Below, piece by piece: positions 3,163-15,159 of a stretch of 17,248 nt of DNA; the stretch's first letter is position 1, and every line of letters starts with the position of its first letter. The stretch lies in IMG/VR virus record IMGVR_UViG_2778261313_000007; one strand, 5' to 3'. The notes beneath the pieces were generated by a model. The model was not told where the DNA came from and made no database searches. It saw nothing but the letters and a program-made list of their open reading frames with translations. The stretch comes from a virus. Lineage: Duplodnaviria > Heunggongvirae > Uroviricota > Caudoviricetes. The position numbers were made by a program, and so were the translations under genes.

Positions 3163-3996
3163 TTAGTATTCGCCGAAATCGATCCGGTCAGTCTTAGCCA
3201 CTGCGCCAATTTCGCTAGGTGTCGGTTTCTCGTTTGTAGAATAGACTTTAATCCATTCAGATTTACCGTTTTCCTGAATATTTCGGACGCGTAAACGCGG
3301 TGCGCCAGAAGTATTACAGGTTAATTGCCATGCGCCATGCTCATTAGCTTGAAGATGAATTAACGATGTATCAGCACCATAAGGGTTAGTGCTAGCAGTT
3401 CCCTTGTAAGTTACGAAACGGTTTCCTGTCAGAGATTCACTATCAATAGGACCACTGAAAGGATTTACACCAGCACCGATACCAAAATCACCCTGACGTA
3501 AGATCCGGCCTTCGGTAGCAATACCCCTTGCCAAAATCCCGCCATCTGGTTCAAGTTTAAATTCCAGTGTTACAGCTTTGTTATCTGCGCCACGGGTTTT
3601 GTGACTAGTGACATAAGCGTCATAGATGACATAGTAACCAGTGTTAGCAGCACTATAGCCAGAGTTCACAACATAGAACATACGGAAGCGTAAAGGTGTT
3701 TTATCCTCTACCGCTTTCATCAACATTGCTTGATGTTCATCGTCAAGAACACGGTTTAATGTGAGTGTTGTCGGTTCCAGTCTACGATAACCAGCAAGTT
3801 TCCCCGTAGCGTCCTGATCGTACTCTTCCAGAGTTTCTATCTCTGTGGATTCGGTTAGCGTAGGGAATGCTGCGATGTTCTCCATAGAACTAAAGCTAGG
3901 ATCGAAAAAGTCGACCTGATTGTCTATCTGGTTAGAGATCGACACTTCAACATGTGATCCAGTGAAAATATCTAAGTTATCTTGTGTAATATTCAT
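3163..3996 (-). CDS. virion structural protein, probably tail- or fibre-associated (function unassigned)
   Basis: ATG 3994-3996 with AAGGGG SD, stop TAA 3163-3165. Lies between head-completion-sized genes and the fibre genes. C-terminus carries EKPTPSEIGAV, the same short motif found in the adjacent fibre protein. Confidence 0.45.
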   Translation of the reverse strand: MNITQDNLDIFTGSHVEVSISNQIDNQVDFFDPSFSSMENIAAFPTLTESTEIETLEEYDQDATGKLAGYRRLEPTTLTLNRVLDDEHQAMLMKAVEDKTPLRFRMFYVVNSGYSAANTGYYVIYDAYVTSHKTRGADNKAVTLEFKLEPDGGILARGIATEGRILRQGDFGIGAGVNPFSGPIDSESLTGNRFVTYKGTASTNPYGADTSLIHLQANEHGAWQLTCNTSGAPRLRVRNIQENGKSEWIKVYSTNEKPTPSEIGAVAKTDRIDFGEY

Positions 3997-11083: not shown

Positions 11084-11680
11084 ATGCTAATTAATCAGCA
11101 AGAAAGAGATGAATTAGCCTTGTCTTGTACCGATCATGAATATCGTTTGCCAGTAAAACATAAGCACTTAAAGACCGATTACACTACATCCGGTTTTAGT
11201 CGCGAAGAAGCGAAAGAGATTTTAATCGAGTTGTATCGCGATCATGGGTATACCGATATTCACAACTTCTTTAAGAAGCATAGAACATCACATACAGAGT
11301 TTCGGAGAGTCCGAGATTGGTTTGATTTTGATATCAAGCGTTATTATCGCATTGATGACGGTCCTATCTATCGGTTGCAGTGGAAGCCGATCCGAGAAGT
11401 GTTGAAACAGAAGAGATTGAATCACGCTATTACACGCTATCGTAACGAGGCTTTCAAGAAAGGCTATGGTGATACAAGGGAACTATTCGTTGAACTCGCT
11501 AACGTGAAGTACAGCCACTATTACAACGATCCTAAATCCTTCTTTGAAGTGCTTCGCAAGGTTGATATAAGTCGGGGTACATACTATTCACGGTTGAAGA
11601 AGTACGGGATTAAGGCAGAGTTCTTTATGTCGGTTGACGATGGAGAACTTTTTCCGATAAAATGTAAGTCCTCTAAATAA
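11084..11680 (+). CDS. DNA-binding protein with C-terminal helix-turn-helix (resolvase/IS-type HTH-like); regulator or possible small terminase
   Basis: ATG 11084 preceded by AAGGAGGG SD. 198 aa. C-terminal DISRGTYYSRLKKYGIK matches the HTH-like motif shared with the two small proteins at 11715 and 14977. Divergent from terL. Confidence 0.55.
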   Translation: MLINQQERDELALSCTDHEYRLPVKHKHLKTDYTTSGFSREEAKEILIELYRDHGYTDIHNFFKKHRTSHTEFRRVRDWFDFDIKRYYRIDDGPIYRLQWKPIREVLKQKRLNHAITRYRNEAFKKGYGDTRELFVELANVKYSHYYNDPKSFFEVLRKVDISRGTYYSRLKKYGIKAEFFMSVDDGELFPIKCKSSK

Positions 11681-11714
11681 AAGTGAACATTCACTTTAAT
11701 TTGGAGAAATGACT

Positions 11715-11942
11715 ATGACTACTAAAACTACTCGCGGTCGTCCTGCCCGTTTTAACGCTGAACAAATGGCTGATATTGCCTACGCTTATTATACAGCGGA
11801 TCGTGGTAAGGAAGCGAAAGAACAGATTCTTAGTGAACATGGGATTTCAATTGCCCAATTCTATAAGAATATGAAGAAGTTAGACATTAAATTCTATGTT
11901 CAGATCGGTGATGGTCAGATCGTAGAAGCAACAGGTTTTTGA
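11715..11942 (+). CDS. small DNA-binding protein (AT-hook-like RGRP N-terminus plus HTH-like C-terminus)
   Basis: ORF-track ORF starts at 11709, but the GGAG SD at 11703-11706 is better spaced for the second ATG at 11715 (MTTKTTRGRPAR...). Motif GISIAQFYKNMKKLDIK is paralogous to 14977..15159. Followed by a strong terminator. Confidence 0.45.
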   Translation: MTTKTTRGRPARFNAEQMADIAYAYYTADRGKEAKEQILSEHGISIAQFYKNMKKLDIKFYVQIGDGQIVEATGF

Positions 11943-12056: not shown

Positions 12057-12082
12057 GAAAAAGCCCCGCACGAGGCGAGGCT
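12057..12082 (-). terminator. rho-independent terminator downstream of rha
   Basis: Minus-strand RNA AGCCUCGCCUCGUGCGGGGCU followed by UUUUU. Near-duplicate of the capsid terminator sequence at 4732-4758. Confidence 0.6.
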
Positions 12083-12090
12083 AAAAATTA

Positions 12091-12906
12091 TTACAGTCCG
12101 AAGACTTCCAGTGATCCAACATTCTGGCGGAGACGTTCAGCCGCTTTATTTTGAATCAGAATAGTGTTGTTCGGCTTAGGAAGATTCAGAGTTGCTTTTT
12201 GTTCTTCTTCCAGAACACCCAATTCAACCAGCACCGGAAGCACATCAACAGTAAACTCAAGCTGGTAGTGAGCATTCATGCGGCAGAAAGACAGAGAAGA
12301 GTCATTAGCAACATACCCACACGGCTTGTTATTTTCATCATAGACGCGCTCAATGTATCCAGCAGTACGTAAGGCCGTCAGTGCTTCTTTAACCTTCGTA
12401 GCGCCCTTTTTAGCGCCTAACAGACGTGTCATTGAATGGCTGTCTACAGACTTACGAACATGAAGTTCAATCAGCTTTTTATTTTCACGAGTTTTCTTTA
12501 ACGCCAGTTCGATCCAGTCGGTTTCTTCAAAGTCTGCATACGGGTTAACGGCTAAACGTTCCTGACGCAGTTTTTCATTTTCTTCTTTCAGTCGTTTCCA
12601 TTCCTGAATAACGATCATTCGACGCTTAACATCGTAACCAGTGACAAGAGTCAGCGTCATTTCTTCGTCAAGGTGATATTCGGTTTGTTCACGTCCACAC
12701 TGATCAAGATAGGTGCGCTCAAAACTGAGCACATCTAATTCCAGAGCATCGAGCATGGATTTAATATCACGTTTAACGTTTTTATGCTCTTTTCCGGTAA
12801 ATTCAGCGATCTGACGAGAAGACATGGTCAGCGGTTTGGTGTTATCAACAACCAGAGACACGGAAGCAGGTTTAATAGCAGTATTCATAGTAGTAACAGT
12901 ATTCAT
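12091..12906 (-). CDS. rha: Rha-family phage regulatory protein (antirepressor-like)
   Basis: ATG 12904-12906 with AAGGGG SD, stop TAA 12091-12093. N-terminal MSSRQIAEFTGKEHKNVKRDIKSML matches the Rha (pRha) N-terminal domain signature. Followed by a minus-strand terminator. Confidence 0.75.
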   Translation of the reverse strand: MNTVTTMNTAIKPASVSLVVDNTKPLTMSSRQIAEFTGKEHKNVKRDIKSMLDALELDVLSFERTYLDQCGREQTEYHLDEEMTLTLVTGYDVKRRMIVIQEWKRLKEENEKLRQERLAVNPYADFEETDWIELALKKTRENKKLIELHVRKSVDSHSMTRLLGAKKGATKVKEALTALRTAGYIERVYDENNKPCGYVANDSSLSFCRMNAHYQLEFTVDVLPVLVELGVLEEEQKATLNLPKPNNTILIQNKAAERLRQNVGSLEVFGL

Positions 12907-12997: not shown

Positions 12998-13144
12998 TCA
13001 TTTAGATTCAGCAATCGCGCGATCAATTTCTTCTTGAATGCGACGCTGGCGTTCATGGAAGTCAACCATTGAGAAATTCAGGTTTGGGGTCCACGGTTTG
13101 CGGTTCGGGGTTTTACGTCCATCAATTTTCTTAGTAGTGTTCAT
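12998..13144 (-). CDS. small basic protein (48 aa), first gene of the rha operon
   Basis: Below the ORF-track size cutoff. ATG 13142-13144 preceded by AAAGAGGA SD. Protein MNTTKKIDGRKTPNRKPWTPNLNFSMVDFHERQRRIQEEIDRAIAESK. Sits directly downstream of a TTGACA-17-TATGAT promoter with palindromic operator. Confidence 0.35.
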   Translation of the reverse strand: MNTTKKIDGRKTPNRKPWTPNLNFSMVDFHERQRRIQEEIDRAIAESK

Positions 13145-13202
13145 AATTAACATCCTCTTTACAAATCTAGGTCAAATAGGATCAAAGTTGTCAAGTGCGA
13201 TA

Positions 13203-13231
13203 ATCATAAAAAAGTCAGAAATTTTTGTCAA
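13203..13231 (-). promoter_or_regulatory. sigma70-like promoter for small ORF plus rha
   Basis: On the minus strand, TTGACA (complement of 13226-13231), a 17-nt spacer, then TATGAT (complement of 13203-13208). Embedded in the TTGTCAA/TTGACAA operator-like palindromes. Confidence 0.5.
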
Positions 13232-13266
13232 TGCCCCTTGACAAGACGCCAAGGGGTTGACCTAAC

Positions 13267-13734
13267 TTACAGCATATCTAAGCCTTCGTCGTAACCGTAG
13301 AAGCCATTCTGAGAAGAAAAACAGATTGGTGCGTAGTCGTCGTCATCTTCGTCTTGTTCATCTTCTTCTGGGGCTTCCTGAGCGGTTTCTTTGCCGTAGT
13401 TAAACATTGCTTCATCCAGTTCATAGACAGTAACGAAGCTACCCAGGTCAATGTCACCGGAACGGACTTCAAACGGAAGATCATCACGAACAATAATTGC
13501 TGGTAGATCCTGGTACTTTAAGCGTTCTTCATCGGTGAAGACGTTAACAACAATGGTCGGCTTCTTATTACGGTAAAACGCATACCATGCACTAGAGAAA
13601 TGGGATTCATCAGAGTTGAAAAGGATGTTATAACCACGTTCACGGAACATCTTCATTAACTTGTCATTGTGGAAGCTATCAGAATCCAGACCCAGAAGGA
13701 TAAAAGGAGTAGTGGTAGTCATCTTGTGGTTCAT
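13267..13734 (-). CDS. hypothetical protein with strongly acidic C-terminal tail
   Basis: ATG 13732-13734 with AGAGGA SD. 155 aa. C-terminal EAPEEDEQDEDDDDYAPICF... resembles the acidic tails of SSB-like or DNA-mimic proteins. First gene leftward of the large control region. Confidence 0.55.
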   Translation of the reverse strand: MNHKMTTTTPFILLGLDSDSFHNDKLMKMFRERGYNILFNSDESHFSSAWYAFYRNKKPTIVVNVFTDEERLKYQDLPAIIVRDDLPFEVRSGDIDLGSFVTVYELDEAMFNYGKETAQEAPEEDEQDEDDDDYAPICFSSQNGFYGYDEGLDML

Positions 13735-13934
13735 AGTGGAAATCCTCTAAAAGAAAGTGAATCAATCTAATATTATTTATAAAGAGAAAATTCTTGTTAT
13801 TATGAAAGGTGATTGTATTCAGTCGGGCAAAGCCCTCCTTCATAGATTTTGAATAAATCATCATCAAAACGAAGAAGTATCTTTAGAATATAAGAATCTT
13901 TCTTTTGGAGAAATAATAATCAGGAAGCAATTTG

Positions 13935-13963
13935 GCAACCGAAGGTTGCAATCCCGAAGGGAT
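13935..13963 (-). other. tandem UUCG-type hairpins
   Basis: Two adjacent inverted repeats: GCAACC-GAA-GGTTGC (13935-13949) and ATCCC-GAA-GGGAT (13951-13963). On the minus strand both read as C(UUCG)G tetraloop hairpins. Confidence 0.4.
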
Positions 13964-14089
13964 AACCAATACCTTTCTAGAAAGTGATTGTTACTCACTT
14001 CGTTCGTTTACTAGAATCAGTTAGTAACTAGTATTAAATCCCTTTCTGAGAAAATCCTTTCAAAAGCGAGTGAACGCCGTAGGTGTGAA

Positions 14090-14169
14090 CGTGAGCGAAG
14101 CGAACTATCCAATCCCTTTCGAATCCTGCTTGCAGGTCTTAGAAGGTGTTGATGGGCGCTTCGCGCACG
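14090..14169. repeat. extended imperfect dyad symmetry centred on a CCTGC-TT-GCAGG palindrome
   Basis: Arms CGTGAGCGAAGCG (14090-14102) and CGCTTCGCGCACG (14157-14169) are reverse complements with one mismatch. The midpoint coincides with the palindrome at 14125-14136. Partial symmetry extends out to about 14073-14180. Confidence 0.6.
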
Positions 14170-14310
14170 GCTACGCCGTATTCTTTTTGCGAGATCTTTC
14201 TTGAACGTAGTGAGAGAAAACGAGCAAAAAGGAGAACGTTAGTTCGAATTTTATATTCTATGGTCTGTGTGGTGAAATGTCTTTCAAGATCATACACTTA
14301 TGAGATTGAA

Positions 14311-14407
14311 GTGTAGGGTTAGTGTAGGTGTGTAGGTGTTATAGTGTAGGTTTACTGGCTAGTGTAGTGTAGGCCAATCCCTTTAAAGCGTAGGTTTGTA
14401 GTGTAGG
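14311..14407. repeat. cluster of seven direct GTGTAGG(T) repeats (iteron-like)
   Basis: Six exact GTGTAGG copies starting at 14311, 14322, 14330, 14344, 14367 and 14401, plus the variant GCGTAGG at 14388. All in the same orientation, 8-23 bp apart, immediately left of an AT-rich tract. Confidence 0.7.
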
Positions 14408-14413
14408 TTTTTC

Positions 14414-14430
14414 ATCAAAAATTTTGATAG
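14414..14430. repeat. 15-bp palindrome ATCAAAAATTTTGAT (operator-like), copy 1
   Basis: Perfect palindrome at 14414-14428. The 15-mer CAAAAATTTTGATAG (14416-14430) recurs exactly at 14565-14579. Confidence 0.6.
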
Positions 14431-14515
14431 AAAATTCTTGTATATTATTTAACCAGAAAATCACCAAAAACCGCTGTAAATGCATGATTTAAAAAGAATT
14501 ATCAAAAGGTCGTCG

Positions 14516-14524
14516 TGCTATAAT
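14516..14524 (+). promoter_or_regulatory. extended -10 promoter candidate
   Basis: TGcTATAAT (TG at 14516-14517, TATAAT at 14519-14524). The -35 is weak. Confidence 0.4.
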
Positions 14525-14564
14525 AGGTTATAAAGGTTGATAATCGTTATCCGCCATTTTCACA

Positions 14565-14579
14565 CAAAAATTTTGATAG
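14565..14579. repeat. copy 2 of the CAAAAATTTTGATAG element
   Basis: Exact 15-nt direct repeat of 14416-14430, lying about 25 bp upstream of the -35 of the strong plus-strand promoter. Confidence 0.6.
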
Positions 14580-14604
14580 TCATTTCTCGCTTAGATCAAG
14601 TGTA

Positions 14605-14633
14605 TTGACAACTATCAAGGATTATTTTATACT
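14605..14633 (+). promoter_or_regulatory. near-consensus sigma70 promoter
   Basis: TTGACA (14605-14610), a 17-nt spacer, then TATACT (14628-14633), directed toward the 14977-16529 genes. Confidence 0.6.
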
Positions 14634-14921
14634 TTTTCTCGTTGGTAGGGGTTGAAATTTTCGAAACAATCCCCATATTGATGATACGCAAGATTTTTTC
14701 GTGTATAAATACATGCATGAAAATGATTGTTCACTTCTGAAAATCCCCTGATTCACTGTTAATTCATACAGCACTGGCTAAACATACAGTACTTATTCGA
14801 TTGAATAATGTACGAATTGATTAATTATTAATCTTCTCTTTAGCAATTCGTGCTCCCACTGATCGGATATACAGTGGTTTTACAGGGTTTTTCGAAAAAC
14901 ATTTTATAAATAGAATTGTTC

Positions 14922-14941
14922 AGAGCAAAAAGCTCTTTTTT
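14922..14941 (+). terminator. weak hairpin plus T-run just upstream of the 14977 RBS (attenuator or leader terminator candidate)
   Basis: AGAGC-AAAAA-GCTCT followed by five to six T residues. Short AU-rich stem, so low confidence. Confidence 0.3.
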
Positions 14942-14976
14942 AAGAAATCATTATTCCAGATTTAGGAGGATATAAG

Positions 14977-15159
14977 ATGGCACGACCTGTTAAGTTCACT
15001 CGTGAAATCGTTTTAGAAATGGCAAAGCGTTATTTTGAACTGACACCTGATGTAGTGATGGGTGAATGGTTTAAAGGTGAAGGTATTGATCAATCAACCT
15101 TCCACAAACTCTTAAAGAAGTATGACATTAAAGTAAAGATTACCGCCGAGGTCTGGTAA
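14977..15159 (+). CDS. small DNA-binding protein (HTH-like), paralog of 11715..11942
   Basis: ATG 14977 preceded by AGGAGGA SD. 60 aa. N-terminal ARPVKF and C-terminal GIDQSTFHKLLKKYDIK align with the other two HTH-like proteins. Confidence 0.5.
   Translation: MARPVKFTREIVLEMAKRYFELTPDVVMGEWFKGEGIDQSTFHKLLKKYDIKVKITAEVW

Follow-up and report, generated by a model that had tools for sequence, protein, structure and literature searches.

Do the TTGAC repeats crowded around the promoter of a Rha-family operon in an enterobacterial prophage serve as operators, and if so, which protein would read them? The window (the whole 17,248-nt stretch of DNA analysed here) is one part of a prophage of about 35 kb. 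Related prophages were found in 58 of 5,426 complete E. coli genomes (about 1%), in the chromosome in every case, and the family is also present in Salmonella and Proteus. In strain HCP5S3_I4 the prophage interrupts hicB and has a large serine recombinase at its far end; this copy (L045, L046) also carries IS2 (twice), IS1 and IS5 insertions. On one metagenome contig, OJKF01000175.1 (L139), the intergenic cassette described below and all compared proteins are identical to those of the window.

We found no cultured close relative, the best terminase match in phage records reaching 43% identity. That match, Escherichia phage DCP80 (PQ671644.1, L002), is filed under Straboviridae/Tevenvirinae although its terminase is of the lambda gpA type; its classification or its assembly may deserve a second look. 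Just past the right end of the window, L045 encodes (25249–25803) a 184-aa protein that is similar to the small terminase subunit of lambda, Nu1, in an N-terminal helix-turn-helix and an EKLRRE motif. Its gene lies about 8 kb from that of the gpA-type large subunit, on the opposite side of the control region. DNA searches with the cassette, run at both near and distant sensitivity, matched none of 50,697 phage records and no plasmid record; among GTDB species-representative genomes nothing appeared by protein profile or by DNA pattern. Nothing relevant on this prophage or on Rha operators turned up in the literature.

A near-consensus promoter is predicted upstream of the rha operon

The operon and its upstream neighbour comprise the following features.

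13267–13734, minus strand: upstream gene p155, with an acidic C-terminus and no known family; it stops 2 nt before site S5
13226–13231, minus strand: −35 hexamer TTGACA of the promoter P_rha, which is site S3; 11 of 12 promoter positions match, with a 17-nt spacer
13225–13231, minus strand: S3 as the 7-mer TTGACAA, with two singleton changes in 36 haplotypes
13203–13208, minus strand: −10 hexamer TATGAT of P_rha, invariant in 36 haplotypes
13154–13158, minus strand: AGAGG, the Shine-Dalgarno sequence for the small ORF, whose ATG (13144) follows after 9 nt
12998–13144, minus strand: first operon gene (the small ORF), 48 aa, one of three unrelated alleles at this position
12091–12906, minus strand: Rha-family (antirepressor-like) gene, PF09669 with E = 1.2e-13 and matches to anti-repressor PHROGs
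12062–12082, minus strand: intrinsic terminator closing the operon, an 8-bp stem with 6 GC pairs followed by TTTTT

Sequence and conservation show a near-consensus sigma-70 promoter in front of the small ORF–rha operon. Its reading in a preliminary description of this DNA was accurate: TTGACA (13231–13226), 17 nt and TATGAT (13208–13203) on the minus strand match the consensus at 11 of 12 positions, joint first among the sigma-70 matches of the window and tied with a second promoter, P_R, at 14605. The same description had called the operon antirepressor-like, which the Pfam and PHROGs matches of Rha bear out. The spacer is 17 nt long, or 16 nt in 4 of 36 haplotypes, and from the position of the −10 hexamer transcription is predicted to start at A13196. 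With an 11/12 match and a 17-nt spacer, activation should be unnecessary. A formal search found no LexA box at P_rha, as no CTGT-N8-ACAG with at most one mismatch lies in 13150–13270.

Gene content on both sides of the promoter is exchangeable. Rha is the constant cargo of the operon, and the first gene encodes 48 aa, 110 aa (with a helix-turn-helix-like motif, WGVSRETISR) or 59 aa; further alleles in relatives lie at 3571–3903 of L038 and 3584–3769 of L027. Two of the three alleles are common to E. coli and Salmonella relatives, and all three, unrelated as they are, start right behind the same Shine-Dalgarno sequence. The 48-aa ORF is one base apart from that of L001, and the neighbouring DNA of L001 is 76–93% identical to the window. 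On the other side the p155 gene falls to 61% identity in relatives, yet its last ~20 nt are unchanged.

Paired TTGAC sites bracket the promoter core

Between p155 and the small ORF, 113 bp accommodate the promoter, a hairpin and two two-part sites.

13238–13264, plus strand: O_up, consisting of S4 (TTGACAA, 13238–13244), 12 nt (N12) and S5 (TTGACCTA, 13257–13264); exact, at −68 to −42
13168–13194, minus strand: O_down, consisting of S2 (TTGACAA, 13188–13194), N12 and S1 (TTGACCTA, 13168–13175); exact, at +3 to +29

These are the only two copies of TTGACAA-N12-TTGACCTA in the window, inverted to each other, and the exact pattern has no further copy in the whole prophage; a second exact copy would arise by chance in 17 kb with a probability of about 3e-5. 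The octamer TTGACCTA likewise occurs exactly twice in the window, both times in this region and in inverted orientation. TTGACAA shows no overall enrichment (4 found, 3.9 expected), but three of the four copies crowd into 57 bp at P_rha, and P_R uses the remaining one as its −35 hexamer. Each unit follows the consensus CTTGACAA-N12-TTGACCTA, that is, direct TTGAC repeats whose starts are 19 bp apart. Like-oriented repeats about two helical turns apart at a fixed spacing are the hallmark of a direct-repeat operator. Relative to the predicted start, S5 lies at −68 to −61, S4 at −48 to −42, S2 at +3 to +9 and S1 at +22 to +29, and S3 is the −35 hexamer itself.

The preliminary description had instead seen a palindromic operator whose half-sites build the promoter. 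Its sequence elements are all present: TTGTCAA (13225–13231), TGCCCC and TTGACAA (13238–13244) form a perfect 7+7 inverted repeat with a 6-nt spacer; TTGTCAAG lies at 13188 and TTGACC at 13257; and CCCCTTG (13234–13240) faces CAAGGGG (13250–13256), as part of a longer, 14-bp minus-strand RNA hairpin. The interpretation fares differently. The sites flank the −35/−10 core and are not its building blocks, and one arm of the central palindrome is S3, a −35 hexamer that is needed there anyway. The S4–S3 spacer is 6 nt in 31 of 36 haplotypes and 7 nt in the other five, as it is in three of five Salmonella relatives, so the palindrome is not a rigid dimer operator; nor does a second copy of it exist anywhere in the prophage. 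The rigid unit is the direct-repeat pair TTGACAA-N12-TTGACCTA, with S4 fixed 12 nt from S5 and S2 likewise from S1. What survives of the original proposal is repression as the most natural reading, because sites at +3 to +29 and −42 to −68 surround a promoter that needs no activator; the palindromic dimer operator does not survive.

The sites are conserved and the DNA between them is not

Relatives were gathered from IMG/VR through two flanking proteins and a DNA pattern, eight copies from E. coli genomes, among the most divergent, were added, and the cassette region was pulled out by BLAST, independently of the motifs. This yielded 81 sequences with 36 distinct haplotypes, all of E. coli prophages, in which columns were counted over 13161–13266. 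In S1, S2, S4 and S5 together, 3 of 30 columns vary, each an outermost base; S3 varies in 2 of 7 columns, both singletons, and the −10 hexamer in none of 6. Elsewhere in the region 39 of 63 columns vary (Fisher p = 1.6e-6, a guide rather than a probability, as the haplotypes are related by descent and recombination and the column test overstates their independence). Minor-allele cells amount to 0.6% in the sites and 6.4% elsewhere. The preliminary description had counted a lack of conservation of the half-sites in relatives against a repressor; they are conserved.

The contrast holds within each unit. In O_down a single one of 15 motif columns is variable, compared with 9 of 12 columns in N12, and in O_up the variation in the motifs is confined to outermost bases, with 7 of 12 N12 columns variable. 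The N12 sequence is free to vary and differs between O_up and O_down, and its length is constant in both, fixed in 36 + 12 haplotypes and equal in all three copies of the unit (the third, at P_R, is described below). The distance between O_up and O_down varies by ±1. The 12 additional haplotypes, from metagenomes, also keep the cores of all five sites.

More distant relatives retain the inner part of the layout. All five sites are present in a divergent E. coli lineage in which p155, Rha and p198 are only 51–59% identical to those of the window. The Salmonella relatives keep the inner sites S4, S3 and S2; the S3–S2 distance is 37 bp in Salmonella and E. coli, and S2 stands at +2/+3 in both clades. 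They have no S1; a single one of the five has S5, and there too it stands exactly 12 nt from S4. Conservation of S4 holds both in a hairpin stem (E. coli) and in the loop (Salmonella L091, L097 and L098), where the site still reads TGTCAA. Across all loci of the family, the only matches to the two-part unit with at most two mismatches are O_up, O_down and the −35 region of P_R.

Inverted repeats flanking a promoter, in a prophage that encodes a large serine recombinase, might also serve recombination, inverting the promoter segment of 43 bp. We regard this as scarcely conceivable, given that all 81 extracted and 13 metagenomic sequences are colinear (0 of 94 with an inverted core) and that no invertase gene lies nearby. 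A segment of 43 bp is also far too short for synapsis.

Since every site reads TTGACA or TTGACC, the extra −35-like hexamers might act on RNA polymerase through sigma-70 region 4, with no dedicated regulator; they could serve as auxiliary or decoy docking sites, as overlapping weak promoters or as a promoter-proximal pause element. Host polymerase is the sole binder that is surely invariant across this mosaic family, and a TAnnnT directly follows each TTGACC (TAGATT at 13164–13169, TAACTT at 13263–13268). These two, the best −10-like elements available, lie at 19 bp, however, and S1, S2, S4 and S5 have no usable −10 element at 16–18 bp; the Salmonella relatives have no TAnnnT 16–19 bp after S2. 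The conserved TTGACCTA tail and the fixed N12 are no features of sigma-70 recognition, and sigma-dependent pausing relies on −10-like rather than −35-like elements. An action through sigma-70 alone is therefore distinctly improbable.

A degenerate third copy overlaps P_R

A further copy of the two-part unit accompanies the second promoter.

14592–14618, minus strand: third two-part copy, TTGATAG-N12-TTGATCTA, degenerate in the window with 3 mismatches
14605–14610 and 14628–14633, plus strand: P_R, with TTGACA, 17 nt and TATACT; the third copy overlaps its −35 hexamer

Many relatives have at this place TTGACAG-N12-TTGACCTA, with a single mismatch; the other strand reads TAGGTCAA-GTGTATTGACAA-CTGTCAA. 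The copy is polymorphic, degenerate here and missing from other P_R alleles, which makes it weaker evidence than first appears.

The leader downstream of P_R has features of its own. The only exact CTGT-N8-ACAG in the window, the LexA-type box CACTGTTAATTCATACAGCA, stands at 14756–14771 between P_R and the p60 gene, with one-mismatch boxes nearby at 14774–14789 and 14859–14874. In relatives the CTGT and ACAG arms are kept and the middle varies, Salmonella L098 reading TACTGTATGAATATACAGTA. SOS control may thus enter at the P_R leader rather than at P_rha. The leader (14640–14944, ~300 nt) folds at −74 kcal/mol (z = −3.3) and ends in a hairpin and T run at 14922–14944, just before the p60 Shine-Dalgarno sequence. 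This hairpin, GAGAGCGGAAACGCTCTTTTT, is kept in Salmonella relatives, and Proteus has a similar hairpin and T run in the same place; the leader could be a non-coding RNA or an attenuator. More widely, 13735–14976 (1.24 kb) contains no credible ORF and may be an origin or control region. About nine iteron-like copies of (A/T)GTGTAGG(T) occupy 14307–14410; the Salmonella relatives have CCTCCTAC repeats directly upstream of their P_R instead. The stretch 13843–13926 is about 77–80% identical to an unannotated intergenic repeat of Krischvirus (RB49, Phi1, JSE and others; 59 phage records); RB49 carries it twice between ORF165c and ORF164c, at a distance of 140 bp. A GCGAAGC mini-hairpin motif lies near the repeat in both, at ~14095 in the window.

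A hairpin at the p155 transcript end overlaps the upstream sites

Three of the sites also belong to an RNA structure.

13227–13261, minus strand: 14-bp RNA hairpin at the 3′ end of the p155 gene transcript, containing S5, S4 and S3; −20.5 kcal/mol, z = −4.55

Its stem joins the S5 core to S3 and CCCCUUGGC to GUCAAGGGG. In 26 haplotypes pairing is retained in 98% of cells; one change is compensatory, seven cells carry a one-sided, wobble-compatible change and seven are unpaired. Covariation is not significant, as a shuffle control reaches the observed value in 117 of 500 runs. Most of the variation and all indels fall in the loop and bulge, and the A/U-rich basal extension is not conserved. The stem is stable and G+C-rich, as expected of a terminator; it is followed by AAAAAUUUCUGAC and not by a U tract, and a terminator scan makes no call. 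A hairpin of different sequence also follows the p155 homologues of Salmonella and Proteus, even though Proteus lacks both the rha operon and a promoter at that place. The hairpin at the p155 transcript end is therefore probably ancient. Because it overlaps the upstream sites, it could explain part of their constraint. By itself, the 5′ UTR that carries S2 and S1 is unstructured (z = 0.0).

These features invite a simpler account, in which the locus is a promoter and stem-loop cassette only: the hairpin ends or stabilises the p155 transcript, the promoter restarts transcription, and the whole is kept uniform as a recombination junction. The TTGAC repeats would then be hairpin arms, the −35 hexamer and hitch-hikers. 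A CCCC/GGGG stem-loop directly upstream of a consensus promoter is the layout of the PeSL elements (PMC2839356), and the strength of the hairpin, its 98% pairing, its wobble-type changes and the restriction of indels to loop and bulge are all as this account expects. So are the hairpin after the Proteus p155 homologue and the junctions on either side, where three unrelated first genes follow one Shine-Dalgarno sequence and a gene down to 61% identity ends in ~20 constant nucleotides. It does not account for S2 and S1, which lie outside the hairpin and do not vary, unlike the 12 nt between them, and it leaves the equal N12, the third copy at P_R and the placement of S4 in a Salmonella loop unexplained. 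The absent U tract and terminator call and the result of the shuffle control also weigh against it, as does its single copy per prophage, PeSLs being dispersed repeats. We consider it fairly unlikely as the whole explanation. That S2 and S1 are invariant in an unstructured 5′ UTR, together with the fixed N12, the P_R copy and S4 in a loop, argues that the hairpin is no full explanation of the sites.

Control at the level of RNA would make use of the same repeats. Copies in p155 read-through RNA (UAGGUCAA, UUGUCAA) would pair with those in the 5′ UTR (UUGACAA, UUGACCUA), or alternatively a processed hairpin RNA would act on the rha mRNA leader, as P1 c4 RNA does on its targets. S5 and S1 are perfectly complementary over 8 nt and S4 and S2 over 7 nt, with equal 12-nt gaps; Salmonella lacks S1 in all five relatives and S5 in four of five; and three Salmonella relatives present S4 in a hairpin loop. 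The long-range structure reaches only −12.9 kcal/mol, however, and the best fold that includes it −22.8 against −33.8 kcal/mol for local folding, a cost of ~11 kcal/mol on which we rejected the S5/S1 and S4/S2 pairing. The invariant sites offer no variation for covariation, and Rfam gave no match at the gathering score and none relevant at E ≤ 5, C4 included. The copy at P_R lies upstream of the start of that promoter, which favours recognition at the DNA level. Taken with the folding energies, this leaves RNA-level control very unlikely.

Candidate binders

The preliminary description had suggested the HTH proteins as candidate repressors and a search for a repressor gene outside the window. 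No divergent gene and no CI/Cro-type family was detected next to the array, and no HTH protein shows variation in step with the sites. Sequence searches against Pfam, PHROGs and PDB recognised no CI, Cro, Arc or Mnt, and those of p48, p155, p60, p77, p198 and the recombinase neighbours returned nothing above threshold. No window gene or small recombinase-adjacent gene matched a replication or CI/Cro family in Pfam or PHROGs, and the RefSeq annotation of the prophage (L045, L046) names no replication or CI/Cro gene. More generally, we found no phage protein that co-varies with the invariant array. Three paralogous products share a module of three helices and a beta hairpin that has no Pfam family.

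11084–11680: p198, two tandem copies of the three-helix module
11709–11942: p77, one copy of the module
14977–15159: p60, one copy of the module

The p198 and p77 genes make up a separate operon that runs opposite to all of its neighbours. Both halves of p198 match the p60/p77 module (hhalign probability 95–96%), and its AlphaFold2 model contains two units of three helices and a beta hairpin (pLDDT 74). Two HTH-like modules, as modelled, might suit two direct repeats, and p198 is the only candidate regulator with a structural logic, if a weak one. Mainstream E. coli relatives with a terminase of only 52–59% identity have a p198 of 86–100% identity, and homologues of p198 extend to Salmonella, Proteus and the divergent E. 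coli lineage, all in synteny. The case is weakened by L094 and L095, where p198 is 51% identical and has other putative recognition helices beside identical sites, and by its apparent absence from L087 (only 170 nt between p77 and the terminase) and, judging by annotation, from L085.

Other candidates fared worse. For p60, 100% identical in L094 and 61% in Salmonella, E. coli prophages with the identical array carry alleles at 54–60%; p60 and p77 each occur in three allelic types (54–100% identity) alongside the same array. The N-terminal domain of Rha is mosaic, with several alleles beside the same array. With several alleles of p60, p77 and Rha and the gaps in the distribution of p198, the binder may be a host factor or RNA polymerase itself. 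Consensus sequences for IHF, TyrR, CusR, RutR, PhoB and FNR, compared by eye, do not fit.

One more speculative combination joins these observations. The TTGAC(A/C) repeats may be −35 mimics, read by phage three-helix modules that contest the promoter with sigma-70 region 4 and clamp P_rha from both sides. The tandem modules of p198 would fit repeats 19 bp apart, and the single-module p77 and p60 would compete at single sites. We rate this as rather improbable; if true, it would mean an undescribed repressor family and immunity logic in hicB-integrating E. coli and Salmonella prophages with no recognisable CI or Cro.

Comparison with described control regions

The immI regions of P22 (Pant, Arc, Mnt) and P1/P7 (c4 RNA, icd, ant) resemble the present locus: an operon under separate control has a strong sigma-70 promoter with regulatory sites on it, a small first gene ahead of one of antirepressor type (Rha/pRha domain), and a terminator of its own. 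Unlike them, the locus has no detected Arc/Mnt-like protein, divergent repressor gene or antisense RNA family; its first gene swaps among three unrelated alleles, and the sequence and layout of its sites are unrelated.

The C repressor of P2 binds direct repeats at Pe, and the CII sites of 186 flank a −35 hexamer. Short repeats 19–22 bp apart that flank promoter hexamers are thus common to P2 C, 186 CII and the array described here, and at P_R the two halves straddle the −35 hexamer as with CII. Here, by contrast, two inverted units bracket one promoter, the repeat is the −35 consensus and no cognate protein was found. Looping repressors (gal OE/OI and the distal sites of lambda and 186 CI) likewise have matching sites upstream and downstream of the promoter core; the distance here is only 50–89 bp, and looping is suggested by geometry alone. 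LexA-controlled antirepressors (186 Tum, Gifsy-type) also place an antirepressor-like gene in an enterobacterial prophage, but P_rha has no LexA box, the only exact one being that in the P_R leader.

The PeSLs of RB49 and phi1 combine a consensus sigma-70 promoter with an adjacent G/C-tract stem-loop and flank ORFans in many dispersed copies (PMC2839356). The present locus is likewise a compact, conserved intergenic cassette with a G/C-tract stem-loop immediately upstream of a consensus sigma-70 promoter and with exchangeable flanking genes of unknown function. It differs in being single-copy in a temperate prophage and unrelated in sequence, in having a stem-loop with no U tract, and in its extra conserved TTGAC sites downstream of the start.

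Discussion

On balance we lean towards reading the paired two-part TTGAC sites as putative operators of one sequence-specific regulator, overlapping a transcript-end hairpin. That regulator is probably a repressor, since P_rha can do without activation and O_down covers +3 to +29. Bound on both sides of the P_rha core, it would block RNA polymerase binding or escape, and the bound units might bridge the 50–89 bp between them; the antirepressor-like operon would be kept off for as long as the regulator is present. That protein would act in many relatives at P_R as well, where the third copy straddles the −35 hexamer. Points against this reading include that the motif is the sigma-70 −35 consensus itself and that the three upstream sites form a hairpin that could constrain them alone.

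The region is of an ordinary kind among phage control regions, with an unusual layout. If the sites are operators, they would be the control point of an antirepressor-like operon in a family that has neither a cultured relative nor a recognisable repressor. The array offers a ready bait (the 27-bp O_down) for the regulator and a simple reporter assay. A promoter, a putative operator and a transcript-end hairpin are packed here into one 100-bp module, which travels intact between exchanged genes.
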